In this document: positions 17,279-59,515 of the stretch, in pieces
Layout: every line of letters begins with the position of its first letter
How positions within the stretch are numbered: position 1 is the first letter of the stretch
Source of the DNA: a candidate division WOR-3 bacterium UBA5631
GTDB lineage: Bacteria > Hydrothermota > Hydrothermia > UBA1063
Assembly (NCBI GenBank): GCA_002421425.1
Contig: DIJZ01000024.1
Span: 349-64,348 of the forward strand
Reading direction: 5' to 3'
Length of the DNA: 64,000 nt
Program-made: the position numbers and the translations under genes
Notes under the pieces: generated by a model
What the model was told of the DNA's origin: nothing
The model's input: only the letters and a program-made list of their open reading frames with translations
The model's database searches: none

Positions 17279-17764
17279 ATGATTAAAAGGTCGCTGTTTA
17301 TAATACTGATTGGAGTTTCGGTGCTCTCAGCCCGCACAGCGGGCTCCATGTTTCGAATTGGTGCAAACACATCCGTGCTATTTGAAAACGGAAATGCATA
17401 CCCCGTCATTGGCATTACCGCTGGATTCTACCCAGTAAACTTCTTCTTCATGGAGGGGAGTGGGGAATATGTTTTCAGAAATGATTATAAAGAATTCGCT
17501 CTTCCGGTCACAGCAAACTTAGCATATAAAACCAGATACTTTCAGCCCTATGCAGGGGCTGGCATTGCCTACCATCTTTACGACTATTCAGATCATGATG
17601 AACATTCCTTCGGAGCGAGGGTCAAAACGGGTGTGACACTTTTCGATACCAAGGGGGCTTCAGGTTCCTTCGAAGTAACTTACGATGTCCCAGACCTGAA
17701 AGGCTCTAAAGGCAGATGGTACTTCACAGGAAGACTTGATAAGAGTTTTAACCTGCAATTTTGA
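17279..17764 (+). CDS. putative outer-membrane beta-barrel protein (OmpW/opacity-like)
   Basis: I start at internal ATG 17279 (MIKRSLFIILIGVSVLSA signal peptide). It has alternating aromatic/Gly beta-strands and a C-terminal …SFNLQF. Confidence 0.45.
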   Translation: MIKRSLFIILIGVSVLSARTAGSMFRIGANTSVLFENGNAYPVIGITAGFYPVNFFFMEGSGEYVFRNDYKEFALPVTANLAYKTRYFQPYAGAGIAYHLYDYSDHDEHSFGARVKTGVTLFDTKGASGSFEVTYDVPDLKGSKGRWYFTGRLDKSFNLQF

Positions 17765-17772
17765 GAAAACAG

Positions 17773-17801
17773 TTGAATTAACGAATATAAGCTCTTAACA
17801 T
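17773..17801 (+). promoter_or_regulatory. sigma70-like promoter TTGAAT, 17 nt spacer, TAACAT; 8 nt before ATG 17810
   Basis: TTGAAT is at 17773-17778, followed by a 17-nt spacer and TAACAT at 17796-17801. The first ATG is at 17810 and there is no SD sequence. Confidence 0.35.
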
Positions 17802-17809
17802 TGATACAT

Positions 17810-18652: not shown

Positions 18653-19494
18653 ACATTTACCTGAAGGAAGAAGAGCTTGAGCTTTACAGGAAAATTATAG
18701 TTCATTCAATTAAAGACCGTCTTGAAAAACTCAGAGTCTCCCTTGGGATAGTGGCCCTTTCAGGAGGAGTTGATTCTTCCCTTGTTGCTGTTTTGAGCAA
18801 AGAAGCCCTAAAAGATAAATTACTCTGCTTAATAATGCCTGAAACCGGCGTTTCAAGTCAAGAGGATATCGACCATGCAATGGAACTGGTTAGAAAATTT
18901 GATATAAATTACCGCATCATTCCGATTAACGGAGCTATTGAGTGGTTTAACCAGCGTTATGAAGAAATCAAAGGACCCAACAAAAACGAAAGACTCGCAA
19001 TTGCGAACGTAAAACCAAGAATTAGAATGATAATGAATTATCTCTACGCCAATACGTTAAACGGATTCGTAATCGGCACTTCCAACAAAACCGAACTCTT
19101 GCTTGGATATGGCACAAAATATGGCGATATTGCAGTTGATTTCTATCCAATTGGAGATCTTTACAAAACCCAGGTATGGCAGCTTTCAGACTATGTTGGA
19201 ATCCCAACGGAAATTATAAGGAAGAAACCCACTGCAGGTCTGTGGGTCGGTCAAACCGACGAAGACGAACTTGGCCACACCTACTATGAGATTGACAGGG
19301 TTCTTTACTGCCTCGTAGAACTGGAACTCTCCGTTCGCGAAACTTGCAAAGTCCTTGGTATTCCGAGAGATGCAGTAATGGACATCTATAGAAGAGTGGT
19401 TTCTTCTGAGCACAAAAGAAAGATCCCCACAATTACCAGGCTATCCCGTATGTGCCTTGACAAAGACTGGAAATATCCCAGTGACCGACACTGA
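18643..19494 (+). CDS. nadE: NAD+ synthetase (PP-loop amidotransferase domain)
   Basis: It has the SGGVDSS PP-loop, NYLYANTLNGFVIGTSNKTE and YGDIAVDF motifs. Confidence 0.85.
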   Translation: MDIDIYLKEEELELYRKIIVHSIKDRLEKLRVSLGIVALSGGVDSSLVAVLSKEALKDKLLCLIMPETGVSSQEDIDHAMELVRKFDINYRIIPINGAIEWFNQRYEEIKGPNKNERLAIANVKPRIRMIMNYLYANTLNGFVIGTSNKTELLLGYGTKYGDIAVDFYPIGDLYKTQVWQLSDYVGIPTEIIRKKPTAGLWVGQTDEDELGHTYYEIDRVLYCLVELELSVRETCKVLGIPRDAVMDIYRRVVSSEHKRKIPTITRLSRMCLDKDWKYPSDRH

Positions 19495-20047
19495 GAAAAG
19501 AAATCTCACCAGAAGCTGGGTGTTCTTTCTTCTTGCCGTAATTCTGTATCAAATTCTTCATGAAGGTTCTCACCTCCTAACATCCCTTTTTTTCGACGAA
19601 TTTGAAGGACTTAGATTTGCGACTATTGGTCCAGAAGTGGTTTACAAAACACCGGTCCCTGAGAGAAGCGGGTTTCACTGGACTTTAATCTCGGGAATGA
19701 GTAGTATCATAACAATAATCCTCGGATATATTTTGCTCATTAACTCAGAAAAAACAGCTTCTTTAAGAAATGTTAACCTTAAGGCTCTGTTGTTCTACAC
19801 AACGCTAGTTCTGCTCATTACAGATCCTTTAAATCTTTCTGTCGGACCCTTCCTCTACGGAGGAGATGCTCCGGGAGTAGCAAAAGGTATGAATGTTCCT
19901 GTGTATCTCGTTCAGGGGCTGTTCTTTGTGATTTTCCTGATAAATAGGGAACTTGTTGCATCGATTCTGCTTTCAACATACAAAATAGAGACAAAGCATT
20001 TCCTTTTTAGGAGCTGGCTTAGAAAATCCCCCAGAGTCGGAAGATAA
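19457..20047 (+). CDS. hypothetical polytopic membrane protein with HExxH (HEGSH) motif, putative zincin-like
   Basis: HEGSHLL lies in the first TM region and there are 4-5 predicted helices. The start is uncertain because the ORF overlaps the nadE 3' end by 38 nt. Confidence 0.35.
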   Translation: MTKTGNIPVTDTEKRNLTRSWVFFLLAVILYQILHEGSHLLTSLFFDEFEGLRFATIGPEVVYKTPVPERSGFHWTLISGMSSIITIILGYILLINSEKTASLRNVNLKALLFYTTLVLLITDPLNLSVGPFLYGGDAPGVAKGMNVPVYLVQGLFFVIFLINRELVASILLSTYKIETKHFLFRSWLRKSPRVGR

Positions 20048-20117
20048 CTGGAAAAAGTCTTTAGATTCGCGTAGCAGAGATTCATTCATCAAATCTTCAA
20101 AAAATCTCTATGAATGA

Positions 20118-22553
20118 CTATTCTAAGGGGGCTTTTTCAAACTTCACTTCCCCATCGTAATCTATTACAATCCTGTCTCCTGCTTTGAACTCACCCGCAA
20201 GAATTTTATCAGCTATCGGATTTTCGACATACACCTGGATAGATCTCCTCAAAGGCCTTGCGCCAAGGTCAGGATTGTAGCCCGCTTCGGATAGGTACTC
20301 CACTAATTTTTCTGTCCAGGATACTTCAATTCCATTTTCTTTGAGACTGTCCTGCACTTCTTTAAGCTGAAGTTCCACAATCTCTTTAACTTCTTTGTGA
20401 CCGAGGGCGTTAAAGAACACGAATTCGTCTATCCTGTTCAAGAATTCAATCTTGAAGAATTTTAGAAGTTCTGGCATTATTGAATTTACCCTGGACTGAT
20501 GAACCTTCGTAAGTTCAGAATCTTTCTTAATAAATCCAATCTGAGGCCCTTCGGAGAACTGATATTGAATGTTGGATGTCATAATTATCAGGGTATTTTT
20601 GAAATCTACAACATGTCCCTGTGCATCGGTCAGTCTGCCGGCATCGAAAATCTGAAGCATTATGTTAAATACGTCTGGATGTGCCTTCTCAATCTCATCA
20701 AAAAGGATCACCTGATAGGGTCTTCGTCTGACAGCCTCCGTGAGCTGCCCACCTCTCTCAAAGCCAATGTATCCTGGAGGCGCTCCGATAAGCCTTGAAA
20801 CGGCGTGCTTTTCCATATACTCAGACATATCAATACGAAGGAGCGCATCTTCGTCGTTGAAAAGGAACCATGCAAGCTGTCTGGCGAGGTGGGTTTTTCC
20901 AACACCGGTGGGGCCAAGGAACATAAAAACGCCAATGGGTCTGTTTCTCTGACCAAGTCCGGCTCTTGAACGCCTTATAGCCTCTGCAACTACCTTTATA
21001 GCATAATCCTGTCCCTTCACTTTCTTCTTGAGTTCATCCTCTACATAAAGCAACCTCTTTGCCTCATCTTCAAGAAGCCTCATGGCAGGAATACCCGTCC
21101 ATCTGGAGACTACGTAAGCGATGTCATTTTCGTCAACAAAATCATCCATGTTCTTTTCCCTTAACCATGTTTCCTTCTTCCCTTCAAGCTCTTTTTCCAG
21201 GAATTCTACCTGTTTCTTCAGATTCTCAACCTCTCCTCTGTTGCTGAACTGATCCATTAGAGTTATCTGATCCCTCAATGAGGCAATTCTATTCTGCAGA
21301 GCCTTTATGTCCTCTGGCATATCTGAAAGTTTTATCCTTAAATACGAACAGGCTTCATCCAGAAGATCTATTGCCTTATCTGGTAACTTCCTGCCCTGAA
21401 CATATCTATCTGCAAGTTTCGCCGAAGCGATTATTGCAGAGTCAAGAATTTTAACTCTGTGATGTTCCTCAAATTTGTTTTTCAACCCTCTTAATATCTC
21501 TACCGTTTCCTCAATAGAAGGTTCCTTTACATAGACAGGCTGAAATCTCCTTTCCAGCGCGCCATCTTTTTCTATTCGCTCCCTGTACTCGTCAAGAGTG
21601 GTCGCTCCAATAACTCTGAGCTCCCCCGATGCAAGCCACGGCTTCAATAAGTTGGCAGCATCTATAGCTCCCTCTGCACCGCCTGCTCCAACTATCGTAT
21701 GAAGTTCATCTATGAAAAGAATGATACGGTCTTTCTGCCGCTTCACTTCATCTATCACCGCCTTCAATCTCTCTTCAAACTCACCCCTGAACTTCGAACC
21801 TGCAAGGAGAGCACCCATATCAAGCATAAGAATTCTTTTATCTCTTAAAAAATCAGGTACTTTCTTCTCATGGATTCTCTGGGCGAGCCCATGTACAATG
21901 GCAGTCTTCCCCACACCCGGTTCACCAATTAGAACAGGATTGTTTTTGGTTTTTCTCAGAATAATTTGAATTACCCTTTCTATTTCATCATTTCGACCTA
22001 TTACAGGATCAAGTTTCCCGGTTTCCGAAAGTTTTGTAACATCGACGGTATACTTCACAAGAGCATTGTATTTACTTTCAGCGGTGGGTTCAGTAACCCT
22101 CTGACTGCCGCGAATCTCGTAAAGAGCTTTGTAAATCTTTTCACGGTCGATCCCAAATTCCTTCAGAATCCTTGCTGAAGGGCCACCAGCTGAATTTTCA
22201 ATTGCGAGAAGAAAATGCTCCTGGGCAACATACTCGTCCTTCAGTTTTTCGGCTTCCACGAATGCCTGTTGGAGGACGTCCTGTGCTCTTGGTGTGATAT
22301 AAATCTGAACGGGCCTGGATCCCTGAATCTCCGTCTGTGGTACCTTTAAAAGAGCCTCTTTCAGTTTTTCCTTAACCAATACAGGATGTATATTTAGCTT
22401 CTCAAATATTTGAGAAACCACCCCTCCTTCTTCCTCCAGAAGCCCGTAAAAAATGTGTTCAACATCCAGTTGATTGTGCTTGAATTTTACCAGCGCCTCC
22501 TGTGCCCGTATAAGAGCCTCCTGAGCGCCCTCAGTAAATTTGTCCATTCTCAT
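20118..22553 (-). CDS. clpB: AAA+ disaggregase ClpB
   Basis: It has Clp_N repeats, two AAA modules ([22 protein letters not shown]) and a long coiled-coil M-domain between them. Confidence 0.85.
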
Positions 22554-22693: not shown

Positions 22694-23539
22694 ATGAAAG
22701 TGTTTAAGTATTTTGTTTTTTGCGGACTTTTTATATTTTTTCTGTATCTTTTTGCATATCCATTTCTTTTCAGGGTAAAATCTCTGGAGTCTGAGAATCC
22801 TGTTCAAACGGCTCTGATGATCTACAGGATCCATCAGTGGAAATCGCAGGGGAAAAATATTAGGATATCCCATACATGGGTGCCACTAAAGAGAATATCA
22901 CCATACCTGGTAAAAGCAGTTTTGATCTCAGAAGATGATAAATTTTTCCAGCATGAAGGATTTGACCTTGAAGGAATCAAACTCGCCATAGAGAAGAATA
23001 TTAAGAAAAAGAAATTAAAATATGGAGGGAGTACTATAAGCCAGCAACTCGCGAAGAATCTGTTTCTTGGACCACGAAAAAGTCTCGTAAGAAAAATTCA
23101 CGAAGCGATTCTGACAGTGAGGATTGAGAAAACTCTGTCCAAACGAAGAATCCTAGAGCTTTATCTTAATGTTGCCGAATGGGGTCCGGGTATATTTGGT
23201 ATTGAAGCTGCATCAGAATACTACTTTTCAAAACCAGCAATTACCCTCACCCCTGAGGAAGCTGCTTTACTTGCTGCTGTTTTACCAAACCCGCAGAAAT
23301 ATTCTCCCGTTAACCCATCAAGATACATAAGTCAAAGGGCAGAAAAGATTCTTTACATAATGAAATTGAGGAATATCATTTCAGAAGAGTATGACAGTAA
23401 TGTAACAAAATCTACACATGATTCACTTTCTAAAGATTCACTCGGTATATATCATGAAACACCACAGGACACATTGAACGTTTACGACACACTGCCAGGC
23501 GCCTCAAGCACCACGAACCTTCAAAATTCAGAAAATTGA
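22694..23539 (+). CDS. mtgA: monofunctional peptidoglycan glycosyltransferase (GT51)
   Basis: It has an N-terminal TM helix and GT51 motifs ISEDDKFFQHEGFD and GGSTISQQLAKNLFL…RK. There is no transpeptidase domain. Confidence 0.75.
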   Translation: MKVFKYFVFCGLFIFFLYLFAYPFLFRVKSLESENPVQTALMIYRIHQWKSQGKNIRISHTWVPLKRISPYLVKAVLISEDDKFFQHEGFDLEGIKLAIEKNIKKKKLKYGGSTISQQLAKNLFLGPRKSLVRKIHEAILTVRIEKTLSKRRILELYLNVAEWGPGIFGIEAASEYYFSKPAITLTPEEAALLAAVLPNPQKYSPVNPSRYISQRAEKILYIMKLRNIISEEYDSNVTKSTHDSLSKDSLGIYHETPQDTLNVYDTLPGASSTTNLQNSEN

Positions 23540-24606
23540 ATTCCTGATTTCTTTAAATGCCCAAGAAACTCATGGGAAAATTCATCATTTAAGCCAAGCA
23601 GTTCCAGAGGCAAAACACCACTTTGATTAATCTTTCCATCTAAAAACATCTTCGTAAGAATAGCTGGCGGAATCCCGGTTAACTCACTCATAGCAGTTCG
23701 CTTTCTATCCATGTTATAGTAGTGAATTAGTTCAAAACCACTTACAGTACCATCTCTCCAGAACTCAATCCTTAAAATAGCAAGATCCTCCTCGCTACCC
23801 TGTTTCAACCTATCCCAAAGCCAATCCCGAAATACTTCGTAAATTGGGCAATCCTTATTCAGAAGACCAATTTCTACTAATACTCTAAAAATTTCAGCAT
23901 GTCCTCTGTAACGAACCGTTTTCTCTTCCAGATTAGGAACATCAGAAATCGTCCTTAATAGCGTTCTCAAACCATCGGTATAGAAGGATTCGAATTTCCC
24001 GCCTATCCCTGCGAAAACCTCCTCTTTAACTCCGGAGAGGGCAGGAACAACCTGAATGGTCCCTCCAATCCTTATCCTAGCAGGCCTTCTGTACTCCTCC
24101 AGCAGGTCTTCTGGCGACCACGTCAAATAATAATTAAAGGGAGGAATCGGTTTGGCAGGAATCCCGCCCACTTTTATAGTGATCCTGTCAAATACACCTC
24201 CGAATTTTCTGTATCCCTAACCAATTAGAAAATTTGAGACCCCTGGAGCAAAACCGGCGTCAACTATAAACTTTAGACCCATCCTCAAGGCATCCTCTTC
24301 ATAATCAAAAGGGTCTTCCTCCATATATGAGATATCAATGCAATGCGCCTTCCTGGAAGCAGCAAACTTCAGAACTTTGTCTCCAAATCTTGCAGGAAGA
24401 CAATTAAGGATCAGGTCACCTTCTTTTACAACTTTGCTGATTTCTGGAGAATCGAAAGAACTGCCTATTACTCTGTATCCGAGAGCCTGCGCCTGGGCTG
24501 CGTTTTTTTCATCCCTCTCCACAGCTATCACATCATATATTCCAAGATCTTTTAAAGTCTCAAGGGTCACGTATCCCTGCCTTCCAGCTCCAAAAAGATA
24601 AATCAT
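23521..24606 (-). pseudogene. saccharopine dehydrogenase / carboxynorspermidine dehydrogenase family gene interrupted by an in-frame TAG (at 24217-24219)
   Basis: The N-terminal part (24220-24606) is an NAD(P)-binding Rossmann domain ending DAGFAPGVSNFLIG (family GLDPGI motif). After the TAG the same frame continues through 15 codons into the C-terminal domain (YYLTWSPEDLLEEYRRPA… matches Sacchrp_dh_C). The total is 361 codons. Confidence 0.5.
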
Positions 24607-25013
24607 CCGAACCTCCAGTGCAACTATTCTAAAGCAATGAAGTTATTCACAAAATCCAATAGTCTCCGGATGCTGAATTGTCACTCAACAGGCTCCACTC
24701 ACGGCGAGTTTAATTTTCTGGCGGAGAAACATTTATACATGCTTAAAAAATGGAGTAATCCTGGATTCTCTGAAAATTCATTTTTAGGTCTGCGACTGAA
24801 AACAAGGTGCATTCTCAATCTTCGCATAAAATTGCCTTAAGCAGTTAAAGGTCTTCACAGGTTTATGGTGTGGGGCATCGGAAATATTCGAAGTTATGGT
24901 TTATGAACAACCATAGGCATATTCAAGAAACACTATTTCTGGACGTTAGCCAGGACGCAGCTCCACCACCCAAGGAAAACTAATAAAGACTAATTTTATT
25001 GATTATGTAGCTA

Positions 25014-25042
25014 TTGACTTTCTGAAAGAGTGATGTTATAAT
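25014..25042 (+). promoter_or_regulatory. consensus sigma70 promoter TTGACT, 17 nt spacer, TGn-TATAAT; 6 nt before ATG
   Basis: TTGACT is at 25014-25019, followed by an exact 17-nt spacer ending in TGT, then TATAAT at 25037-25042. The ATG is at 25049. Confidence 0.5.
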
Positions 25043-25048
25043 CCTAAT

Positions 25049-27202
25049 ATGGACCTGAGAAATGTTATTGAGAAAGTTGAGGATCTTAAGGAAAAACACA
25101 GCTCTGTTACCAGAGCCCTTTCAAAACTTAACGAATTTTACAACAAAGGTGAGATTACCGAGAAACAATTCAAGATCCTCAAGGGCGATTACGAGAAAGA
25201 AATCAACTTTCTGGGAAAGGAATTGGAAGACTTACTGACATCAGTGAAACAGCAACTTGAAGATCTGGAAAGAACTTTGAAAGACCTTAACATGGAGTAT
25301 AATAAAACGAAAATTGATATTCTTCTCGGCGAAATCCCCACAGAGAAAGGAAAAGCAGAACTTGCCAAGATCGCCAAGCAAATTGCCCTTTCACAACATA
25401 CGTACAATCAATGTAAAGCTATTCTCGAAGCGGAAACCGAAGAAGATTTTGAGAGCATAAAGAAAATGGCACCTCCAGCGAGTATAAAAGTTGAAAACGT
25501 TGTATCGGTGCAGGAGTTACTTCACCAGGAAGAGGAACTTAGAAACAAGCGTTTTGAAGGAAAAGCACAGGCTTATTTAAAACCCCTCGAAGAACTTTAC
25601 AATAGACTGGAAAAAATAAGAGATTTCATCTCTGAAAGCATCAAAGAAGTTGAGTCCCAAAAGAACTCTCTGGAAGAAGAAGCGGGGAAACTGGTAATCA
25701 AAATCCGAATGGGAGGCACCGAGGAGCAAGCAGCGCGAAACAGATTAATGGAAGTTATAAAGAAAGTTAAAGAATACGACGAACTCCTGGCAAAAATGAG
25801 TAAAACAGCAGAACAGATTAATCAAAGGCTCGGCATAAAAGAAACTGTACTGGTGGGTGCAGAAGAAGATGCTTCAAAAATAGGACAGATCGAAGAAATA
25901 AACCTTGAGGAAGCCTCAAAAATACTTGAAGAACTCGAAAAACAGGGTCTTGAAATCATTAGTACGGAAACTGTAGAACCTTTAGAAGAAAAACTTATGG
26001 AAGAAGAAAAGGAAGTTGTCGAAACCGAAGCTCCGTCTTCGATTAAGACGGTAAAAATAAAGAAAAAGTCTCCCGTACCCGTTATTGCAGCAGCAGTTCT
26101 TGTAGTTTTGGGAATTCTTTTCGGAGTTTACAGGAAGTTCTTTTTTGCACCCGAAGAAAAAGCCCAGGTCATTTACCCAGTTTATATGGGGAATCCTGCG
26201 CACAACTACGACGTTAGAGCTCAGATTTCCACTCAACCACCAAGAATTGAATGGTCCAGAAATTTTCAGGGCACTCCAGCTCAGCCAGCTGTAAGCAACG
26301 GAACCATATACGCGGGAACAGCTGATGGCAAGCTCTACGCCATTGATTTTTCGGGAAATATCCTCTGGAACGTAAGTCTTAAGGGGTCAATATTGCACAC
26401 CCCTGTGATTGCCAATAACAACATCATTGTCGGAACCCTTGAGGGAATTTTGTACGTCCTCAATACATCTGGTCAAATTATTAGAACAAAAACCTTTACA
26501 GGGGGAATTGCTTCTCCTCCTGTCGCTTTTGGTGAGGTAATCTATGTTCCAGTATTCCAGGAAGGCGTCTATGCTTACAACATAAATCAGGATAAGGTCG
26601 AATGGAAATTCACTACAGAAGGAATGGTTAAAAACATTCCCATTGTTGACGAAGCGAACCTTTATATTGCAGACCTTTCCGGGAAACTTTACGTGGTAAA
26701 TCGTTCTAATGGTATTGAAATCAATAATTTCAAGACTTCAGGACCGATCGAAAGCTATCCGGTACTGTACGAAGGAAAAATTTTCTATGGGAATAATACT
26801 GGAGAGATAGGTTGCTACGATGCAAAGAAAAACGTGTTGCTCTGGTCTTTCAACCTGATGGAACCCGTTGTGGGAAGCCCCACTATCCAGGATTCCTTCT
26901 CCATTTATACTACTGCCTTCGGCAGGGTATTTTGCCACAACAATAGAACAGGTATGAGGATCTGGGATTTCAATACTGGAAATCTGATTTTCTCTACCGC
27001 AGTTATAGTAGATTCGTTTGTTTTTGTAACAACCACAACCGGTGCAGGAGACTTTGGAGAGCTCTACTGTCTTAGCGTTCGGAGTGGAAACCTTGTGTGG
27101 GTACTCCCAATACCCAGAATTCTCGAGACAGCACCTGTCTTCTGGGGAAACCGTCTATTCCTGGCAGCAAGAGACGGCACCTTCTATGCCATGAGTTTTT
27201 GA
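25049..27202 (+). CDS. type-II membrane protein: long N-terminal coiled coil, single TM, C-terminal PQQ-repeat beta-propeller
   Basis: About 330 aa of heptad-rich E/K sequence is followed by a TM helix (VPVIAAAVLVVLGILFGVY). After that come repeated GxLYA(I/L)D…G…W motifs typical of PQQ/BamB-like propeller blades. Confidence 0.6.
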   Translation: MDLRNVIEKVEDLKEKHSSVTRALSKLNEFYNKGEITEKQFKILKGDYEKEINFLGKELEDLLTSVKQQLEDLERTLKDLNMEYNKTKIDILLGEIPTEKGKAELAKIAKQIALSQHTYNQCKAILEAETEEDFESIKKMAPPASIKVENVVSVQELLHQEEELRNKRFEGKAQAYLKPLEELYNRLEKIRDFISESIKEVESQKNSLEEEAGKLVIKIRMGGTEEQAARNRLMEVIKKVKEYDELLAKMSKTAEQINQRLGIKETVLVGAEEDASKIGQIEEINLEEASKILEELEKQGLEIISTETVEPLEEKLMEEEKEVVETEAPSSIKTVKIKKKSPVPVIAAAVLVVLGILFGVYRKFFFAPEEKAQVIYPVYMGNPAHNYDVRAQISTQPPRIEWSRNFQGTPAQPAVSNGTIYAGTADGKLYAIDFSGNILWNVSLKGSILHTPVIANNNIIVGTLEGILYVLNTSGQIIRTKTFTGGIASPPVAFGEVIYVPVFQEGVYAYNINQDKVEWKFTTEGMVKNIPIVDEANLYIADLSGKLYVVNRSNGIEINNFKTSGPIESYPVLYEGKIFYGNNTGEIGCYDAKKNVLLWSFNLMEPVVGSPTIQDSFSIYTTAFGRVFCHNNRTGMRIWDFNTGNLIFSTAVIVDSFVFVTTTTGAGDFGELYCLSVRSGNLVWVLPIPRILETAPVFWGNRLFLAARDGTFYAMSF

Positions 27203-30909: not shown

Positions 30910-30910
30910 C

Positions 30911-30982
30911 TGGGGGATCGTCTAACTGGCAGGACAGCTGACTCTGGATCAGCCGGTCGGGGTTCGAATCCCTGTCCCCCAG
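30911..30982 (+). tRNA. tRNA-Gln (anticodon CUG)
   Basis: Sequence TGGGGGATCGTCTAACTGGCAGGACAGCTGACTCTGGATCAGCCGGTCGGGGTTCGAATCCCTGTCCCCCAG, with anticodon loop CT-CTG-GA. It sits 1 nt after the tRNA-Glu CCA. Confidence 0.85.
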
Positions 30983-30994
30983 TATAATAAATAA

Positions 30995-47900: not shown

Positions 47901-48344
47901 ATTGGGTGCAGTGTAGCCTCCTATCTCTATTATTTGCTTACTGGAGATCCAATAGAAATCAACCTCGAAAAGGTACTGGAATCCTCAAAAGCCGCAAAAG
48001 TGACAAAGTGTTACATTGATGCGATTCTTTACGAGCTAGTTTTAGGTAACGCCAGTCGAAAGTACCTTGAAGAGGCAAAATCCCTTGAAAGTCACTTCAA
48101 TCTTAAACAAAAACTACTTTTTGATATTGCCAGTCTGAGGGTGGAGCTGGTAAGTGGCGAAGTAGAAAATCCTGTAGAAAAGCTTGATGAGCTTGAGAAA
48201 AAACTGAAAGAAGTAAAAGCCAGATTATTGATGAATTTTCTTTACAGAGTTGCCATCAAATACTTCAGCGATATTGATGCTTCTCTGGCCTCATCCTTCA
48301 GTGAAAAATTGCAACCACTACTTACGAATCAGATGGCCCCGTAA
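44988..48344 (+). CDS. GGDEF diguanylate cyclase fused to degenerate STAND-type NTPase and TPR array
   Basis: The GGDEF domain has an RYGGDEF A-site and an RESD I-site. The NTPase-like region has GVRGVGLT in the Walker A position (Lys replaced by Leu) and LLLNIDN in the Walker B position. A long TPR region follows. Confidence 0.75.
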   Translation: MEELFLVDPLTQLYHHNYFIVRIGEEVARAKRKGTPLCLLFIDLDFFKMINDNFGHPVGDEVLKQFAISLKNAVRESDLIFRYGGDEFTIILPETSKDDAIKIAQRIKETLEDQGYGPSKNLKLSLSIGISQFPLDGVNADEILQKADERTLSSKKTGRGKIVYTSDIREETLNISLSAARIIGREKEISSFTQLLTEFKNTSKRFIALLKGVRGVGLTRLLEEISKVADILGIRTLHVTVKEKDVKEPFPLLKAMLRELIRDEHQLVLDEAQKNIVAYLIPEAFPGESLRTITISEHKVIPVVLDLLCAKKAEDKLLLNIDNGQNITKRCILQLIHILKEESARDISLIIAKTSRNMFEEELKTLYGDLYNFEILPLKREEIKTILWQILRFEPEDEFLDWIMAKTGGRPLYVDRVLNTLLLSKKLFPGETHWILSESYYSGVEDISLPLAEEITSLAPQEREVLEFCAVYNLDFSTSVIAALTELTITQVLEIFDNLTRNGYLEEIIPYNLYRFANPFVREIIYSQIPKEKRTKMHFRIARILDNNPDETARLNPQILYEHYIQGGMESKAIPYMELMVKNAIKKREFKKAIRLIQRIFEIAEYKLQISEKIRLLRELAVCLRNEGEIEDSITKLKMALELAEKYNEKYEEALVRLEIAWIQHEKYESKELFINIEEIQQIANQIKDKEILARALIYKALYYIDFENNKTKAVLTLDEVLNLVKEEENHEILAQVYGNLGKCYSQLKQNNKAKESFEIALYHARLCENPDYLASIMLNYGTTQYIMQDVESSRKTFEKTLELIRRENIRHLMPHLYSNLAMIYVNYGEYPISINYLEQALDYAKDMNLEAEALTYSAYLYGVRAYLGDHQYYESKLREVAETAKYKNYMQAWERANMYLVHIYSFLGDFTNLGKVIKNIESFRNPRSKMLAEIAVLENLVVFLKDPRKIREPLINRRREAIEKGDFTSEIGCSVASYLYYLLTGDPIEINLEKVLESSKAAKVTKCYIDAILYELVLGNASRKYLEEAKSLESHFNLKQKLLFDIASLRVELVSGEVENPVEKLDELEKKLKEVKARLLMNFLYRVAIKYFSDIDASLASSFSEKLQPLLTNQMAP

Positions 48345-48747
48345 GTTTAGCCTCGAATCGAAACAGTAAATTCCTTAATCTCGCATCGAAAAGTCTCAGC
48401 ACAAGGAAGTACACAGCCATTAGTATAAACCCTGAAATAGCACTAAAAACTTCTTTGAATCCAAGCCATTGACCAGTATAGTAACCTGCAACAAAGGCAA
48501 AAATTGGAAAAATAAAAATTAGTGCCGCTGCAATTAGAATTCCTATTGTGTTTTCTTCAACGATAACAATATCTGCAGTCTTCAAGTCGCGACCTCTAAC
48601 TTCGATTACGTCCTCACTTTCCGTCTTACGCCCAAGGCTACAGAATTTCGCGAGAGTACAGGACGAGCAGGAACTGTCCTTAAAGACCTTAACCTGATAT
48701 TTCCCACTTGAAAGTTCTGACAATACAATTCCTTTGATTTCCGCCAT
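48322..48747 (-). CDS. rseC: RseC/MucC-family protein (Rnf-associated)
   Basis: It has an N-terminal Cys cluster (CSSCTLAKFC) and C-terminal TM helices. It is adjacent to rnfB. Confidence 0.55.
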   Translation of the reverse strand: MAEIKGIVLSELSSGKYQVKVFKDSSCSSCTLAKFCSLGRKTESEDVIEVRGRDLKTADIVIVEENTIGILIAAALIFIFPIFAFVAGYYTGQWLGFKEVFSAISGFILMAVYFLVLRLFDARLRNLLFRFEAKLTGPSDS

Positions 48748-49575
48748 CTATAATGTCTTAACCTCCGCAAACTTACTGTCCAGCGCAATAGCACCCGTTG
48801 GACAAACTCCAATCACCTTTTCAGCCACTTCATCGACTTTATGTGAATCGATTATATACGCAAGATTGTTTTCAAGCTTCATCGATCCTTCGGGTGCTTG
48901 CTTTACACAAAGGCCACAACCAATGCAGGCAACCTTACAGTAGCTCTTCGCCACAGGGCCTCTATCCAGGCTCTTGCAGAACACAAAGACCTTTCGGTCC
49001 TGAGGCACGAGTTCAATAATTTCCCTCGGGCATGCCTCCACACACTTTCCGCAAGCAGTGCACTTCTCTTCAATAATGTGAGGCAATCCATCATCACCAA
49101 GATACATAGCACCAAATTTGCATGCTTTTACACAGTCACCAAAACCGAGGCATCCGTATATGCAGCCCTTATCACCTTTTATCGTCATATCTGCAACTCT
49201 GCACGAGTTTATTCCGTTGTACTCAGCTCTCCTAATTGCATTCTCAAGAGACCCATTGCACATCAGCTTTGCAACTCTCTTTTCAACACTCACTGCATCA
49301 AGACCGAGGATATGGGCAACTTTATTGGCAACATCCTGACCGCCAGGTGCACACTTCCCGGGATTTTTTTCCTGGCCACTGGCAAGAGCTTCTGCATACC
49401 CTGCGCATCCTGCATACCCGCAAGCACCACAGTTTGCACCAGGAAGTGCATCAAGAAGTATTTCAACTCGAGGGTCTTCGTGAACTGAAAGTTTTTTGTA
49501 TGAAATCACAAGGAACAATCCGAAAAAAAGACCGAGACCAAGGGTAAGCAAAAGGCTTATAAGAATAATGTTCAT
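48748..49575 (-). CDS. rnfB: Rnf complex subunit B (polyferredoxin)
   Basis: It has an N-terminal TM helix, CGACGYAGCAGYAEA and multiple CxxCxxCxxxCP ferredoxin motifs. Confidence 0.8.
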   Translation of the reverse strand: MNIILISLLLTLGLGLFFGLFLVISYKKLSVHEDPRVEILLDALPGANCGACGYAGCAGYAEALASGQEKNPGKCAPGGQDVANKVAHILGLDAVSVEKRVAKLMCNGSLENAIRRAEYNGINSCRVADMTIKGDKGCIYGCLGFGDCVKACKFGAMYLGDDGLPHIIEEKCTACGKCVEACPREIIELVPQDRKVFVFCKSLDRGPVAKSYCKVACIGCGLCVKQAPEGSMKLENNLAYIIDSHKVDEVAEKVIGVCPTGAIALDSKFAEVKTL

Positions 49576-49586
49576 TTCTTGCCTCC

Positions 49587-50171
49587 TTACTGTAATGTAA
49601 TAATTCCAGAAAACCCCATAAACGCAAAAGCCATTAATCCTGCAATGAGGAGGGTTATTGGCGCACCCTTTAGGGCTTTTGGAACATCCCGTACTTCCAG
49701 TTCTTCTCTAATTCCCGAAATTAACAAAAGGGCTATGGTGAAACCAACACCAGCGCCAAATCCAAAGAACGTGTTCTCTATTAAATTGTAATTTCTCATC
49801 GCACCAAGGAGAGCCAGACCCAGAACAATACAATTGGTTGTAATGAGCGGCAGAAAAATGCCAAGGGCCTTATAAAGAGAAGGAGATGCCTTCTTGATGA
49901 CCATCTCCACAAACTGCACCAGCACAGCAATAACAAAAATGAAAACAATCATCTGAAGAAAATCCAAATGTAGAGGCCTTAAGATAAGATGGTCAACAAC
50001 ATTCGTAATAATTGCCGTCATTGTCATCACAAAAGTTGCTGCAAAACCCATACCTATAGCCGAAGAAACTTTGGCTGACACACCCAGAAACGGACACAAA
50101 CCTAAGAAGTATGTGAGAATAAAGTTGTTGGTGATCGCTGCAGCTATAAAGATAATCAATGGTCTTACCAT
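49587..50171 (-). CDS. rnfA: Rnf complex subunit A
   Basis: It is a 194-aa polytopic protein with a typical RnfA/NqrE N-terminus (…LGLCPFLGVS…). Confidence 0.85.
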   Translation of the reverse strand: MVRPLIIFIAAAITNNFILTYFLGLCPFLGVSAKVSSAIGMGFAATFVMTMTAIITNVVDHLILRPLHLDFLQMIVFIFVIAVLVQFVEMVIKKASPSLYKALGIFLPLITTNCIVLGLALLGAMRNYNLIENTFFGFGAGVGFTIALLLISGIREELEVRDVPKALKGAPITLLIAGLMAFAFMGFSGIITLQ

Positions 50172-50183
50172 GGTGTTGCCTCC

Positions 50184-50789
50184 TTATTCCTTCCTTGTTA
50201 TGAAGTTCATAAAGCCTATAAGCATTGCAAGGGTCAAAAATGCTCCGGGAGGAAGAATCATCACCAGGATTGGTTTGAAAGAAGAACCAAAAATCCTAAA
50301 TCCCAGGATACTGCCAAACCCAAGTATTTCTCTGATGATCCCCATAAGCAGTATAGCGATCAAATAACCAGCACTCATGCCTAATGCATCCATTATGGAA
50401 GGTAATAACTTATTCTTTTTCGTGAAGGCTTCTTGTCTTCCAAGAATTATGCAGTTCACAACAATAAGCGGGATGTAAGGCCCAAGAGCTTTAGAGATGT
50501 CAGGAAACTTGGCCTTCAGGAACAGGTCAGCAATAGTAACAAACGTGGCGATTACAACAATGAAAGCAGGGATTCTCACTTCAGAAGGTATCAAATCCTT
50601 TACAAGTCCAATTACAAAAGAAGAGAAGAAAAGCACAAACAACACTGCAATTCCCATGGAAATGCTGTTTACGACAGTATTCGAGACTGCAAGGACTGAG
50701 CACAATCCCAGAAGCTGCACCAACACAGGGTTTTCCTTAAAAAACCCCTTGAAAAATTCAAAACCGAGATTTCTGTTATTTGATGCCAT
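50184..50789 (-). CDS. rnfE: Rnf complex subunit E
   Basis: It has the RnfE/NqrD-type sequence …NPVLVQLLGLCSVLAVS…. I start at internal ATG 50789, just after the rnfG stop. Confidence 0.85.
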   Translation of the reverse strand: MASNNRNLGFEFFKGFFKENPVLVQLLGLCSVLAVSNTVVNSISMGIAVLFVLFFSSFVIGLVKDLIPSEVRIPAFIVVIATFVTIADLFLKAKFPDISKALGPYIPLIVVNCIILGRQEAFTKKNKLLPSIMDALGMSAGYLIAILLMGIIREILGFGSILGFRIFGSSFKPILVMILPPGAFLTLAMLIGFMNFITRKE

Positions 50790-51741
50790 TTTTGATCTCC
50801 TTTTTGAGGATTTCAAACCCCGTGTTCACTGCGGAAATGATAGCATCCTGAGTTACTGTTGCACCGGTCACTACCTCTACCCCTTTAATGTTCAGTGGCA
50901 GAGCCTTTCCCTTCAATTTCTGAGAAAACTCTTCGAATTTTGTTCTATTGACAGCCACTTCAGAACCATCAAGAACCAGCAGGTCTTCAATTCTCGAAAC
51001 TTTTGTGTCTACGCAAAGAAAAACTGCGACACTATCACTGTACCCAAGCCCTCTTGCAATTATTCCATAGCCAAGAATTTCGCCTTCCTCTTCTAAGAAA
51101 TACAAGGACCCTCTTTTCTCCATTCTGACTCCTGGCATTACTTTCTGCAGGTATCCTTCCACTTTTACCTCCAGACTATCTTTCCCAGTCTCACCTGATA
51201 AATTCTCCTTCAGCACCTTTTGAGCATTATTCACTATCGCCGCCACAGATTTCGAAGATATAGTAGCCCCAGTAATAGCCTGTACTTGCGATTTCTTTTC
51301 AGGCTTCTGACCCTTTAACACCTCAATAGGTGGGGTAGTCCCCTCAAACTGCTTTTTGAAGCCATCCTCTACTATTCTATTCCCAAGCCCAGGAGTCTCA
51401 ACGTTTTCAAGAACTTCGATTCCAAGCACCGTGTCTCCACTGGGGTTGAATCCCACCATTAGCTTTATCGCGCCCTGAAATCCTCCACCGGTTATCATAA
51501 CACCGTAACCCAGAACTGAACCGTCGCTCCCTTTTGCAGTTAGAATTGAAGTCTTGTCATCAATCACCTGCTCCTCGTAGCTCTCAGTTCCCTTCACCAC
51601 TGAAAGGAGTGCCGTTTTCTTCGAATTATCCAGATTTCGCTGAATGGCTTCCTGGGTAGAGACATATGTGTATGCAAGAATACTTCCAGCAAAAGCGATA
51701 ATCACAGTAAGAACGATGATCATCCTGTATTCTTTTCTCAT
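50776..51741 (-). CDS. rnfG: Rnf complex subunit G with two FMN-binding domains
   Basis: It has an N-terminal TM helix. The first FMN_bind domain has ETPGLG and AITGATISS. The second FMN_bind-like domain ends VVTGATVTQ. I start at ATG 51741, adjacent to the rnfD stop. Confidence 0.7.
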   Translation of the reverse strand: MRKEYRMIIVLTVIIAFAGSILAYTYVSTQEAIQRNLDNSKKTALLSVVKGTESYEEQVIDDKTSILTAKGSDGSVLGYGVMITGGGFQGAIKLMVGFNPSGDTVLGIEVLENVETPGLGNRIVEDGFKKQFEGTTPPIEVLKGQKPEKKSQVQAITGATISSKSVAAIVNNAQKVLKENLSGETGKDSLEVKVEGYLQKVMPGVRMEKRGSLYFLEEEGEILGYGIIARGLGYSDSVAVFLCVDTKVSRIEDLLVLDGSEVAVNRTKFEEFSQKLKGKALPLNIKGVEVVTGATVTQDAIISAVNTGFEILKKEIKNGIK

Positions 51742-52694
51742 CTTCGAACCTCCCCAAGAATTCTTGGCTCCGTAAGCCTGTCTATCCATGGTCTTATCGT
51801 ATTCATTATAAGAATACTGAACATTACCCCCTCAGGGTAACCTGAGAAGAGTCTTATTAACACCACAAAAAATCCTGCGAATATCCCGTAGATAACCCTT
51901 CCCTTAGAAGTAATAGGAGAAGTAACCATATCCGTAATCATGTAAAAGGCTCCGAGCATTAGACCTCCTGACAGGATGTGGAAGAGCGGGTCTGGATACT
52001 TCGCTGGATTAATTAGCCACATAATCCCTCCGAAGAAGAAGACCGATGCGATGTAAGAAAGAGGAAGCCTGAAATCGACATAACCCTTCAATATTAGAAT
52101 TAATCCACCAATAATCAAAAGGAGTGCGGATGTTTCCCCCATAGACCCTGAGACATTTCCGAAAAAGAGATCTTTGTAAGGAGTGAGTACCTTCATAAAT
52201 TTGAAAGTAGCAAGAGGAGTGGCACCTGTAAAAGTGTCGGGAGCCATAAGTCGCGTTGGCACCCAGGTAGTACCATCAACTGGGAAAGCTGCCATCAGAA
52301 ACGCCCTTCCAATTAGAGCAGGATTGAAGATATTCTGACCTATGCCACCGAAAAACTGTTTAGCAAAGACAATTGCAAAAGCCGACCCAAGGGCTGCTTC
52401 CCATAAAGGAAATCTCGGAGGAAGCGTAAGGGCGAGAAGGATTCCAGTAATTACTGCGCTTCCGTCAAGGCACTGTGAGACATCTCTTCCTCTTAATTTG
52501 AGAAAGATGGCTTCCACGACTACTGCTGTCGCAGCACTTACAAGCATCACAAGAATAGGATAAAATCCAAAGAAATAAACAGCCCCAGCAGCGGGAAACA
52601 GCAGTGTAAAAACGGTAAACCACATCACCCTTTTAACACTTTCTGAAGTTCTAATATGAGGTGATACAGATAAAATGAAATTTGGCTCACTCAT
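51738..52694 (-). CDS. rnfD: Rnf complex subunit D
   Basis: It is a polytopic NqrB/RnfD-like protein with the flavinylation-region motif …TGATPL…. I start at ATG 52694, adjacent to the rnfC stop. Confidence 0.85.
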   Translation of the reverse strand: MSEPNFILSVSPHIRTSESVKRVMWFTVFTLLFPAAGAVYFFGFYPILVMLVSAATAVVVEAIFLKLRGRDVSQCLDGSAVITGILLALTLPPRFPLWEAALGSAFAIVFAKQFFGGIGQNIFNPALIGRAFLMAAFPVDGTTWVPTRLMAPDTFTGATPLATFKFMKVLTPYKDLFFGNVSGSMGETSALLLIIGGLILILKGYVDFRLPLSYIASVFFFGGIMWLINPAKYPDPLFHILSGGLMLGAFYMITDMVTSPITSKGRVIYGIFAGFFVVLIRLFSGYPEGVMFSILIMNTIRPWIDRLTEPRILGEVRR

Positions 52695-54007
52695 GAGGCC
52701 CTCCTCAATTCCTGCTTCCCGTATTTGATCCACTGCACATGATTAATCTTTGAAGGACAGGCATAGGCACAGGATCCACACTCAATGCAATCCAGAAGCC
52801 CGTACTTTTCCTTCGCATCAAAATATCTTCCTGCTTTGACATACTCCACCAACATAAGTGGCAATAACCCCATTGGACATACGTCAACACATTTTGAACA
52901 CCTAATGCAATTGTATTCCTCAAATTTTTTAGCAGTCTTATGAGTGAAAAGCAATATTCCTGAGGTGCCCTTAATTACCGGGACATCCAGAGTATACTGA
53001 GCTATGCCCATCATAGGTCCACCATTTATAACCTTAACAACCTTTTCTTCCATACCACCTGTCATTTCGATGACATCAAGGAATTTCGTCCCGATCCTTA
53101 CAAGGTAGTTACCAGCGCCCCGGGCACCATCTCCCGAAAGAGTTAACACTCTCTCTATTAGAGGCTTCCCGTACCTCACAGCTTCGTAGATTGCAAGGGC
53201 TGTCTGAACGTTCTGAACGAGACACTTCACATCCATTGGCAAACCGCCCCTGGGAACTTCCCTTTTTGTAAGAGCCTTTATTAGCTGTTTCTCAGCACCC
53301 TCCGGGTACTTTGTCTTCACGATTTTGAGTTCAAACCCGTCAAATTCACCAATAACCTCGCTTACCTTCCCTGCAGCTTCTGGCTTGTTATCCTCTATGG
53401 CAACTATAACTCTACCCGCCCCCAAAGCCTTCTTTATAAGATATGCACCCAAAAGTACCTCTTTAGCCCTTTCCTGCAAAATTCTATCATCAGCTGTGAG
53501 AAATGGCTCGCATTCCGCACCATTAATAATTACCGTATCTATTGGCTTATCTTTAGGTGGAGATAGCTTCACATGCGTGGGAAAAGCAGCACCGCCCAAT
53601 CCAACTATTCCAGCCTCCTTTACAGCACTTACAATATCCTCAGGGCTGGATTCCTGCCAGTTAGCTCTTTCTGCAGGCTCCTCAAACCACTCATCCTTTC
53701 CATCAGGCTCAATCACAATAACCGGGGAAGAAGTCAGAAGAACTGGATGAGGATGTTCAATTATCGTTCTGATTTTACCGGAGGTTGGAGCATGGATATT
53801 TGCTGAAATAAAACCATCAGCCTCGGCTATCTTCTGGCCTTTCTTTACGTCATCTCCCCTTTTTACCAGGGGTTTTGCTGGCTTTCCCGTATGCTGGCAC
53901 AGAGGTATGAACAGAGCAGACGGGACTTGAAGCCTTTCAATTGCTTTACCAGTGGTTACCTTATGATAAGGGGGATGAATTCCTCCTGGAAATGTGTATT
54001 TCGCCAT
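52691..54007 (-). CDS. rnfC: Rnf complex subunit C (NADH-binding, 2x[4Fe-4S])
   Basis: It has GLGGAAFPTHVK, a C-terminal CIRCSKCVDVCP and CIECGSCAYACP. Confidence 0.85.
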   Translation of the reverse strand: MAKYTFPGGIHPPYHKVTTGKAIERLQVPSALFIPLCQHTGKPAKPLVKRGDDVKKGQKIAEADGFISANIHAPTSGKIRTIIEHPHPVLLTSSPVIVIEPDGKDEWFEEPAERANWQESSPEDIVSAVKEAGIVGLGGAAFPTHVKLSPPKDKPIDTVIINGAECEPFLTADDRILQERAKEVLLGAYLIKKALGAGRVIVAIEDNKPEAAGKVSEVIGEFDGFELKIVKTKYPEGAEKQLIKALTKREVPRGGLPMDVKCLVQNVQTALAIYEAVRYGKPLIERVLTLSGDGARGAGNYLVRIGTKFLDVIEMTGGMEEKVVKVINGGPMMGIAQYTLDVPVIKGTSGILLFTHKTAKKFEEYNCIRCSKCVDVCPMGLLPLMLVEYVKAGRYFDAKEKYGLLDCIECGSCAYACPSKINHVQWIKYGKQELRRAS

Positions 54008-54021
54008 ATTTAAGGCTCCTT

Positions 54022-54612
54022 TTAAGTCTTTTTATAATCTCTTCCAAGTTTAAAGGCTCTCAGGTTTGCATCTACAGTTTCTTTCTTCACACTTTCAGAA
54101 ATTACTTTCTGCCAGCTGTCTTCGCTAAAAGGCAAGTAGTTTGAGAGTGCACCAAGAAGCACTGTGTTAGCCGTTCTCGGGTCTCCTGCTTTCTTTGCAA
54201 GATCAGTAGCAGGAACAATAATGACATCAGCATTAACCTTTCCCCTGATGATACTCTCGATATCCTGCGGATATACGTCAAGTTTCATAGAAACCGTGAT
54301 TGGAACGATTTCAAGGTCATTAATAATCACTCTCGCACCATCTTTTTTAAGATAGTGAATCCACCGAAGAGCTTCAGATTTTTCAAAGGAAAGAATCAAA
54401 TCGCAGGAACCCTTTTCCACTAGAGGCGAGTATACTTTTGGACCCAGCCTCACATGACTTACGACACTTCCGCCTCTTTGAGACATACCATGAACTTCGC
54501 TCTTCTTCGCATCTAAGCCGGATTCCATTGCAACTTTCGAGAGAAGCTCAGAAGCAGTTAGAATCCCCTGACCACCTACGCCTGAAATAATTACGTTCAA
54601 AACCCTTTCCAT
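54022..54612 (-). CDS. iorB: indolepyruvate:ferredoxin oxidoreductase beta subunit (2-oxoacid:Fd oxidoreductase gamma-type domain)
   Basis: It has VIISGVGGQGILTASELL and is about 196 aa from internal ATG 54612. It lies directly downstream of iorA. Confidence 0.7.
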   Translation of the reverse strand: MERVLNVIISGVGGQGILTASELLSKVAMESGLDAKKSEVHGMSQRGGSVVSHVRLGPKVYSPLVEKGSCDLILSFEKSEALRWIHYLKKDGARVIINDLEIVPITVSMKLDVYPQDIESIIRGKVNADVIIVPATDLAKKAGDPRTANTVLLGALSNYLPFSEDSWQKVISESVKKETVDANLRAFKLGRDYKKT

Positions 54613-54625
54613 TTCCCTTACCCCC

Positions 54626-56368
54626 TTAAGAGATTGCCCCGAAGGGACAGACCTGAATACAAAGATCACAACCGACGCAAAGGAGCTCCGAAATGAACGC
54701 TTTTCCATCCTTGATACTAATGGCAGGACAACCAAGCTTCACACAACCAAGGCACTTTTCTCCCCTGCAGATATCAGCATTAACTTTCCTTTTCGGTCTT
54801 AAAGACTGAATCTTTCTCTCTTCAGGTAGCAAAGCACACGGCCTTTTTGAAATTATTACTGCAGGCTCATCAAGCTCCATAACTTCCTTCAGCACTTCCC
54901 TTGTACCCCTTAAATCGTGGGGATCAACTTCATAGACTTTCTGAATACCGCAAGCTCTGACAATTTCTTCAATCTTTATAGCCCTGGTGGGCTCACCTTT
55001 CGCCGTTTTTCCAGTACCCGGATGATCTTGATGCCCCGTCATCGCAGTGATGCGGTTATCAAGGATTATTATTTTGGTAACTCCTTTATTGTAAACTACA
55101 TCAATCAAGCCGGGAATGCCAGTGTGCAGAAACGTCGAATCGCCAATTACACCAAATACCTTCTTCGAAAACTCCTTGCCCCTCGCCAGTTCAAAACCAA
55201 AAGCGTTGGTAATTCCTGCGCCCATACATATCGTAGTGTCAATGGATTCATAAGGTGGAAGCGCTCCAAGAGTATAACATCCGATATCACCGGTTACTGT
55301 GGCCTTCAGCCTCCAGAGGTTGTAAAAAATTCCAGTGTGTGGGCAACCGGCACAGAACACTGGAGGTCTCATAACCGACTTTATTGGTTCCGGGTGTGGA
55401 AGTTCCTCTCCCAGAACACCCTTTCTCACAACTTCCGGTGAAAGCTCATCGCAAAGGGGAATGTATTTCTTTCCTTCTACGCTAAAACCGAGGATTTTGA
55501 TTTCCTCTTCTATAAAAGGTTCATTTTCTTCAATTACAATAATTCTATCAACCATTTCTGAAAACTTCTTAAATAAATCAACTGGGAATGGATATGACAT
55601 ACCCAGCTTCAAGTACGTCGCATCTGGAAACACTTCTCTGGCGTACTGATAGGAAATCCCGCTGGTAACAATCCCGAGGGCGTGACTTCCTTTCTCAATC
55701 CGATTAAGTTTTGTAGAACAAGAAAATTCCTGCAGTTTCTTCAGACGCTCCTCAACAACGTAGTGCCTTACCCTGGCATTAGCGGGTAGGATCACGTATT
55801 TCTTAAAATTCTTCACGTACTCTTTTATCTCAGCTTCTTCCCTATCGCCAAGTTCCACTACGGATTTTGAATGAGAAAGTCTTGTCGTCATCCTGAACAG
55901 TACGGGAGTATCAAACATCTCGGAAATACTGAAGGCTTCCTTCAGGAAATCCTTTGCTTCCTGAGAATCTGATGGCTCTATAAGTGGGAGTTTTGCAAAT
56001 TTCGCGTACCTTCTATTATCCTGTTCATTTTGAGAAGAATGCATTCCAGGATCATCACAGGTAACCACAACAAATCCCGCATTGATTCCAGTGTAAGAGG
56101 AAGTGAAAAGCGGATCAGCAGCAACGTTGAGACCAACGTGCTTCATAGAAGTAATACTTCGAGCACCAGCGATAGCTGCTCCCATAGCTACCTCAAAGGC
56201 AACCTTCTCATTAGTGGACCACTCAGCGTAGATTTCCTTATATTTTGCTATATTTTCAAGGATTTCCGTGGAGGGTGTGCCAGGGTAGGCAGTAGCAACT
56301 TTTACACCAGCTTCCCACGCTCCTCTAGCAACGGCCTCATTGCCTGACATTAAATCTCTAACTGGCAT
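54626..56368 (-). CDS. iorA: indolepyruvate:ferredoxin oxidoreductase alpha subunit (TPP-binding, C-terminal 2x[4Fe-4S])
   Basis: It is 580 aa with a TPP motif GDIGCYTLG…GDSTFLHTG and a C-terminal CxxCxxCxxxCP pair. Confidence 0.8.
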   Translation of the reverse strand: MPVRDLMSGNEAVARGAWEAGVKVATAYPGTPSTEILENIAKYKEIYAEWSTNEKVAFEVAMGAAIAGARSITSMKHVGLNVAADPLFTSSYTGINAGFVVVTCDDPGMHSSQNEQDNRRYAKFAKLPLIEPSDSQEAKDFLKEAFSISEMFDTPVLFRMTTRLSHSKSVVELGDREEAEIKEYVKNFKKYVILPANARVRHYVVEERLKKLQEFSCSTKLNRIEKGSHALGIVTSGISYQYAREVFPDATYLKLGMSYPFPVDLFKKFSEMVDRIIVIEENEPFIEEEIKILGFSVEGKKYIPLCDELSPEVVRKGVLGEELPHPEPIKSVMRPPVFCAGCPHTGIFYNLWRLKATVTGDIGCYTLGALPPYESIDTTICMGAGITNAFGFELARGKEFSKKVFGVIGDSTFLHTGIPGLIDVVYNKGVTKIIILDNRITAMTGHQDHPGTGKTAKGEPTRAIKIEEIVRACGIQKVYEVDPHDLRGTREVLKEVMELDEPAVIISKRPCALLPEERKIQSLRPKRKVNADICRGEKCLGCVKLGCPAISIKDGKAFISELLCVGCDLCIQVCPFGAIS

Positions 56369-59333: not shown

Positions 59334-59447
59334 CTAACCCTGCCTCTGCTTGTGCTTAGGATTCTGACAAATAACCATAACTCGTCCTTTTCTCTTAATT
59401 ATCTTACATTTATCACAAATTTTCTTTACAGAAGATCTAACTTTCAT
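59334..59447 (-). CDS. rpmJ: 50S ribosomal protein L36 (not in ORF track)
   Basis: The minus strand translates to [37 protein letters not shown]. It ends with TAG. Confidence 0.8.
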
Positions 59448-59515
59448 TAACAAAACCTCCCTTCGTAAAGTTTAAGAATTTTACAGCAAAAGCCTCAGAG
59501 TGTCAAAACAAATCC

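Follow-up and report, generated by a model that had tools for sequence, protein, structure and literature searches.

A TAG codon private to one deposited assembly divides an L-lysine 6-dehydrogenase-like gene of a candidate division WOR-3 population

Base errors in draft genomes, single-cell assemblies, and metagenome-assembled genomes create apparent pseudogenes, and benchmark single-cell assemblies carry 5 mismatches per 100 kb (PMC6122165). The gene studied here resembles such cases in that its substitution occurs in one assembly only, with every other assembly of the same population carrying the intact allele, and in that a single gene is annotated as two proteins; it differs from documented assembly errors in that the error is a probable one and in that we infer the type of the source library. 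An in-frame UAG inside an otherwise intact enzyme gene also recalls pyrrolysine recoding, from which the present case departs in that this UAG is unconserved, in that UAG codons are frequent genuine stops here, and in that the window, by which we mean the whole stretch of 64,000 nucleotides that was analyzed, yielded no Pyl tRNA. To our knowledge, pyrrolysine is not known from proteins of the L-lysine 6-dehydrogenase-like family.

On the side of the enzyme, the closest solved structure is PDB 3abi, the PH1688 protein of Pyrococcus horikoshii, which aligns from residue 3 to 358 of our query and from residue 20 to 362 of the chain (E=5.6e-50). This structure is given as the L-lysine 6-dehydrogenase of P. 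horikoshii in the part of PMC10413350 that cites Yoneda et al. 2010. The same paper describes the carboxyspermidine dehydrogenases (CASDH), represented by the structures 4RL6, 4INA, and BfCASDH, as a group of their own, marked by a His-Glu-Glu triad, and states that 3ABI lacks this triad (PMC10413350).

The interrupted gene and its relatives

In the minus-strand frame that opens with the ATG at 24606, the protein reads MIYLFGAGRQG...DAGFAPGVSNFLIG up to a TAG at 24219..24217, which forms codon 130. Beyond this TAG, the frame continues unchanged through GYRKFGGVFDRITIK to a GTG at 24171 and then as GGIPAKP...YYLTWSPEDLLEEYRRPA...SEF to a TGA at 23523..23521, with GGIPAKPIPPFNYYLTWSPEDLLEEYRRPA being the residues that directly follow the V of the GTG in the C-terminal half. 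Together, these parts make up a gene of 361 codons (23521..24606, minus strand), which we delimit by its translation, its Pfam matches, the intact allele in other assemblies, and the alignment with PDB 3abi. In the NCBI record, it appears as two separate proteins, an N-terminal fragment of 129 codons (P0122; 24220..24606, minus strand), which comprises the Rossmann NAD(P)-binding part with its GAGRQG motif, and a C-terminal open reading frame (ORF) of 216 codons (P0123; 23521..24171, minus strand), which begins at the first possible restart, GTG 24171, and has no NAD(P)-binding domain.

Both Pfam domains of the saccharopine dehydrogenase-like proteins are found in the conceptual product, in the order PF03435 and PF16653 and above their gathering scores. 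PF03435 (Sacchrp_dh_NADP) covers residues 3-106 with 47 bits (cutoff, 25.1), and PF16653 (Sacchrp_dh_C) covers residues 118-356 in a single match that runs across the stop (E=9e-37; 128 bits, with a cutoff of 31). Because there is one frame, one stop, and a PF16653 match that spans it, we regard the locus as a single interrupted gene and not as two genes that share a frame by chance. The earlier note had placed both halves in the same frame, parted by one TAG, and translation and the match across the stop bear this out. We also surveyed the window for junctions of this build, in which a single stop parts two open stretches of the same frame, each 100 codons or longer. The survey returned 11 junctions over the 64 kb, and one of these, the codon-130 TAG, splits one protein family; the remaining 10 lie between unrelated neighboring genes or off the coding frame.

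In a collection of 5.8 billion proteins, the conceptual product has 376 relatives, nearly all of them full-length (355-380 aa), and those with a named source come mostly from candidate division WOR-3. The glycine-rich dinucleotide-binding motif at the N terminus, LFGAGRQG (residues 4-11), is well kept among 54 aligned homologs, with G11 invariant and G6, G8, and Q10 conserved in at least 90%. The likeness to PH1688 extends over a near-full-length alignment (361 versus 365 aa) and the two-domain saccharopine-dehydrogenase fold, and it includes the common motifs DAGFAPG.SN, GG.P..P.PP, Y..TWSP.DL.EEY.RPAR, and FY/ISDGLR. The two proteins differ in that their identity is moderate, in that the substrate and activity of the present enzyme are putative, and in that codon 130, a stop here, corresponds to Arg in 3ABI. 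The next PDB matches, the saccharopine dehydrogenases/reductases 2axq and 1e5l (E=1e-18 to 1e-17), extend over only about the first 260 residues; over the full length, the kinship to the L-lysine 6-dehydrogenase 3ABI is closer than that to saccharopine reductase/dehydrogenase. Several homologs carry the name "lysine 6-dehydrogenase" at JGI, whereas NCBIfam returned weak, subthreshold Rossmann-type matches only and no equivalog name. We therefore place the protein, by sequence, as most similar to L-lysine 6-dehydrogenase, and its best label would be an L-lysine 6-dehydrogenase-like member of the saccharopine-dehydrogenase fold. The proposal of the earlier note that this is a saccharopine/carboxynorspermidine-dehydrogenase-family gene holds for the saccharopine-dehydrogenase-like fold and not for the carboxynorspermidine dehydrogenase, since the closest characterized relative is 3ABI. 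Membership among the carboxy(nor)spermidine dehydrogenases (CASDH/CANSDH) appears improbable, given that the HEE tripeptide is absent from the intact protein (P0001) and that no CASDH chain is found among the PDB sequence matches at E<=1e-3.

At its 3' end, the dehydrogenase gene overlaps by 19 nt (23521..23539) with a convergent gene for a monofunctional transglycosylase (22694..23539, plus strand; PF00912). No terminator-like site was found between these two genes, and a promoter and terminator scan of 23400-25100 gave nothing above shuffled expectation. Farther along the window, a cluster of Rnf complex genes (RnfB/A/E/G/D/C), with an RseC-like gene at 48322..48747, lies in the region 48748..56368 on the minus strand. 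It adjoins a pyruvate/2-oxoacid:ferredoxin oxidoreductase pair (54022..56368, minus strand), which is itself adjoined by rplQ and rpoA of the ribosomal-protein operon. Together, the Rnf and oxidoreductase genes give this WOR-3 genome a compact energy module based on ferredoxin.

Codon 130 and a second private base

Five overlapping pieces of an 85.6-kb ENA contig (k141_2080469 of ERZ27315067) together cover the window and match it at 63,998 of its 64,000 bases, with zero indels. One of the two mismatches, at 24217, turns Tyr130 of the dehydrogenase into the stop, and the other, at 21638, turns Gly306 of ClpB into Trp (clpB, 20118..22553, minus strand; codon 306 is GGG in the others and TGG in the window). 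Every other assembly that covers 21638 or 24217 agrees with the ENA contig. Codon 130 is TAC (Tyr) in nine assemblies of the same population from other samples, namely, ENA ERZ27315067, JGI 3300002220 and 3300038387, and the Logan assemblies of SRR28822772, SRR28822773, SRR28822774, SRR636569, SRR5322458, and SRR7754706. The TAG is thus a single-base change that is private to one deposited assembly. On the coding strand, it arises by C-to-G in the third base of the Tyr codon (TAC to TAG), and base 24217 (C on the plus strand, G of the TAG on the minus strand) is the sole difference between the two codons. Compared with the intact allele, the DNA of the gene is identical at 1085 of 1086 bases and has no frameshift and no further stop. 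The proteins that carry the marks of the private bases, that is, the 129-aa P0122, the 216-aa P0123, and the Trp306 form of ClpB (P0125), occur in NCBI only, each on one 72,633-bp contig. Exact look-ups of the Trp306 ClpB, the 216-aa fragment, and a 231-aa partial fragment in an index of gene positions returned no record.

The top relative, P0001 (361 aa), is identical to the conceptual product of the window except for Tyr130, and the protein of the strain from DRR490230 (P0121) has three amino-acid differences and keeps Tyr130. In orthologs with 50-63% identity, whose genes are full-length, position 130 is Y, F, L, or M. Among the 54 aligned homologs, this column holds E in 29, Y in 8, R in 8, H in 3, F in 2, and L, M, Q, and N in one each, and never a stop or a gap. 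Thirty-three columns of the alignment are invariant, one of them being Gly129, directly before the interrupted position. The comparison of orthologs that the earlier note had proposed as a check therefore finds a sense residue in all 54 aligned homologs, with Tyr in the divergent strain. Exact-pattern scans for the stretch around the variable base, which was itself set to N, gave 0 matches in the genome and JGI metagenome contig collections, as did a scan of the metagenome contigs for the TAG allele alone; these scans are silent on allele frequency because the collections evidently do not contain this population. Likewise, a search for related loci in the genome contigs that started from P0001 returned no relative.

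The population itself is extremely clonal, in that assemblies from several unrelated submissions (NCBI, ENA, JGI, and Logan) are 100% identical over tens of kilobases; the set that is identical in this way comprises, besides the window, ENA ERZ27315067 k141_2080469, JGI 3300002220, and SRR636569. A second set of strains (SRR28822772-5 and DRR490230) is 0.2-0.8% divergent, with differences that are almost all synonymous. The SecY cluster at 90% identity or more includes proteins that bear the name candidate division WOR-3 bacterium. SRR636569, one of the samples with this population, belongs to data sets from methanogenic hydrocarbon-degrading enrichment cultures (Tan et al. 2015).

Against the natural variation of the population, the two private changes stand out. 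Among the other strains, which lie 0.2-0.8% from the window, 90 of the 106 coding variants (85%) are synonymous, the 16 replacements are mostly conservative, and transitions make up 70% of all 116 variants. The private changes, by comparison, are both non-synonymous, and both are G:C transversions (plus strand, C>A and G>C); they lie 2.6 kb apart, a closeness that two random sites in 64 kb would reach with a chance of ∼8%. Because they are close-set non-synonymous G:C transversions set against natural variants that are mostly synonymous and rich in transitions, they do not look like polymorphism filtered by selection and would be either errors or brand-new mutations. Systematic errors at methylation motifs, as in long-read assemblies, were considered and set aside, with no motif common to both sites and zero indels in 64 kb when compared with the other, independent assemblies. 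In ClpB, codon 306 falls within NLLKP-x-LA-GEL, a highly conserved motif that belongs to the first ATPase domain; the equivalent residue of Thermus ClpB is Ala, and that of ClpC1 is Lys. To take the lethality of ClpB G306W as proof of an error would be too strong, since other residues stand at this position in Thermus ClpB and ClpC1.

Contig ends in run SRR5322458

One of the nine assemblies with TAC behaves differently from the others at both private sites. Run SRR5322458 contributes five short Logan contigs to the region (ids 62, 107, 116, 128, and 139; 2.6-7.9 kb). Contig _139 spans 13793-21656 of the window, carries the common C at 21638, and ends 18 nt beyond it, and contig _62 begins at 21639, exactly one base after this private site. 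The same contig _62 carries TAC at 24217 and ends at 24241, 24 nt beyond, and contig _128 begins at 24218, again exactly one base after the private site. All other assemblies run uninterrupted through 21638 and 24217. That contigs of a single run start one base past the only two sites that are private to the window cannot be a coincidence. It points to a k-mer graph of SRR5322458 that is ambiguous or thinly covered at 21638 and 24217, as is expected if the reads disagree there. No TAG-bearing Logan contig was recovered from this run.

The numbering and lengths of the contigs suggest that the data set of SRR5322458 is small and fragmented, as would be that of, for example, a low-input, single-cell, or mini-metagenome library; the contig ids of bulk metagenomes, for comparison, range up to 451,395. 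From the coincident contig breaks alone, we infer that the NCBI assembly of the window was built from SRR5322458 or from a sister data set. A search of the literature for this run found no mention of it.

Some further features of these contigs concern other places in the window. SRR5322458_128 has two mismatches to the window, at 30955 and 30976, both in the last 28 nt of the contig and inside a tRNA-Gln gene (30910..30983) that adjoins a tRNA-Glu gene; they may come from a collapsed second tRNA copy or be an artifact of the contig end in SRR5322458. The ends of contigs from SRR636569 and SRR5322458 also coincide, exactly or almost so, at some positions (1069; 59735 and 59741), which suggests a repeat or otherwise difficult sequence at 1069 and at 59735-59741.

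Origins of the TAG and their meaning

For the stop, the earlier note had left programmed readthrough, a recent pseudogene, and a sequencing error as options. That the TAG is decoded in a programmed way to give the full-length enzyme, be it by pyrrolysine, a suppressor tRNA, or context-driven readthrough, is in our view very improbable. The two halves do lie in frame and the sequence downstream is intact, but both are equally expected after any recent one-base change, and codon 130 is Tyr TAC in nine assemblies of the same population, with a stop or gap in none of the 54 homologs, so that the TAG is not conserved. The claim of the earlier note that TAG is a genuine stop in this genome proves right: rpmJ (59334..59453, minus strand) ends in ...KHKQRQG-TAG, and TAG terminates 8 of the 50 long ORFs in the window, including those of rpmJ and the neighboring clpB. 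Nor is there a tRNA with a CUA anticodon among the window's 4 tRNAs or a pyl-like Pfam family in the genes called on the 85-kb contig. The RNA fold of the 96 nt that begin with the TAG is no more stable than that of shuffled sequences (z = -0.18), and the dehydrogenase gene is the only one in the window that is split by an in-frame TAG. Even less credible is an old, established pseudogene that decays in the lineage, for which the stop codon speaks and nothing else. We reject it because all other bases of the gene are those of the intact allele (1085 of 1086 are identical), without frameshifts or extra stops; moreover, the lesion is missing in all other assemblies, and relatives at 50-63% identity are full-length, with 33 invariant columns across the 54 homologs. 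Readthrough and an established pseudogene thus fall away, which leaves a sequencing or consensus error, somewhat favored, and a very recent null allele.

We think it somewhat better than an even chance that the TAG is a consensus or amplification error in one assembly and is absent from the DNA of the organism. We lean toward an error because TAC stands in nine other assemblies, because the TAG is private to one NCBI record, and because the contigs of SRR5322458 break at this very place. On this explanation, the gene would be normal and intact in the WOR-3 population, codon 130 would be read as Tyr in the organism, and the variant base would be missing from cellular DNA. The miscall of TAC as TAG would have entered the consensus of one deposited assembly where reads were thin, heterogeneous, or both, possibly through an error of amplification or DNA damage or through a consensus call at low coverage. 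A single early-copied molecule that carried errors would explain both the closeness of the two private changes and their nature as G:C transversions. No unusual decoding would be involved, and the two NCBI "proteins" would be artifacts of one base. At 2 per 64 kb, or ∼3 per 100 kb, the discrepancy of the window does not exceed the single-cell benchmark of 5 per 100 kb (PMC6122165).

On the other hand, the source sample may contain cells, or consist of cells, that truly carry the variant base. We give a lesser, though still substantial, chance to a real and very recent nonsense mutation, that is, a null allele in the sequenced cell, subclone, or subpopulation that is linked with ClpB G306W. Both private changes sit in a single deposited record, and polymorphism within the sample would break contigs at both sites in one run just as well as an error would. 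Bottlenecks in enrichment cultures can let unselected mutations rise, the cell could plausibly do without an accessory catabolic enzyme, and new random mutations are usually non-synonymous, which fits the pattern. For this last reason, the non-synonymous nature of the two changes, which speaks against an old polymorphism filtered by selection, speaks only weakly against a fresh, real mutation. What weighs against a null allele is that it is unseen in nine other samples and that the contigs of SRR5322458, though broken there, carry TAC; that two unlinked random mutations would be unlikely (∼8%) to fall within 2.6 kb of an otherwise identical 64 kb; that both are G:C transversions, compared to 70% transitions in the natural spectrum; and that the gene has no secondary decay. 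If the null allele were real, its 129-aa product would be without the catalytic/dimerization domain and a restart at GTG 24171 would give a protein without the NAD(P)-binding domain, so that the function of the enzyme would be lost. A more elaborate version, in which the TAG allele is kept at appreciable frequency in one enrichment subpopulation, low-level near-cognate readthrough (Tyr or Gln) makes it a leaky knockdown with a strongly lowered dose of the enzyme instead of a null, and ClpB G306W marks a selectively favored haplotype, seems to us highly unlikely.

In either case, the locus holds no new biology, as the fold is known and it is familiar that a discrepancy of one base makes a gene look split in a draft assembly. 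If the base were genuine, an accessory amino-acid dehydrogenase would have acquired a new null mutation of an ordinary kind, the interest of which would be confined to microevolution in long-term hydrocarbon-degrading enrichment cultures. The main value of the present result lies in quality control: the NCBI record splits one enzyme gene into proteins of 129 and 216 aa, which are now in protein databases, and the same record carries the Gly306Trp form of ClpB, seen nowhere else. For the WOR-3 lineage, gene loss, pseudogenization, or recoding that is inferred from that record would mislead.
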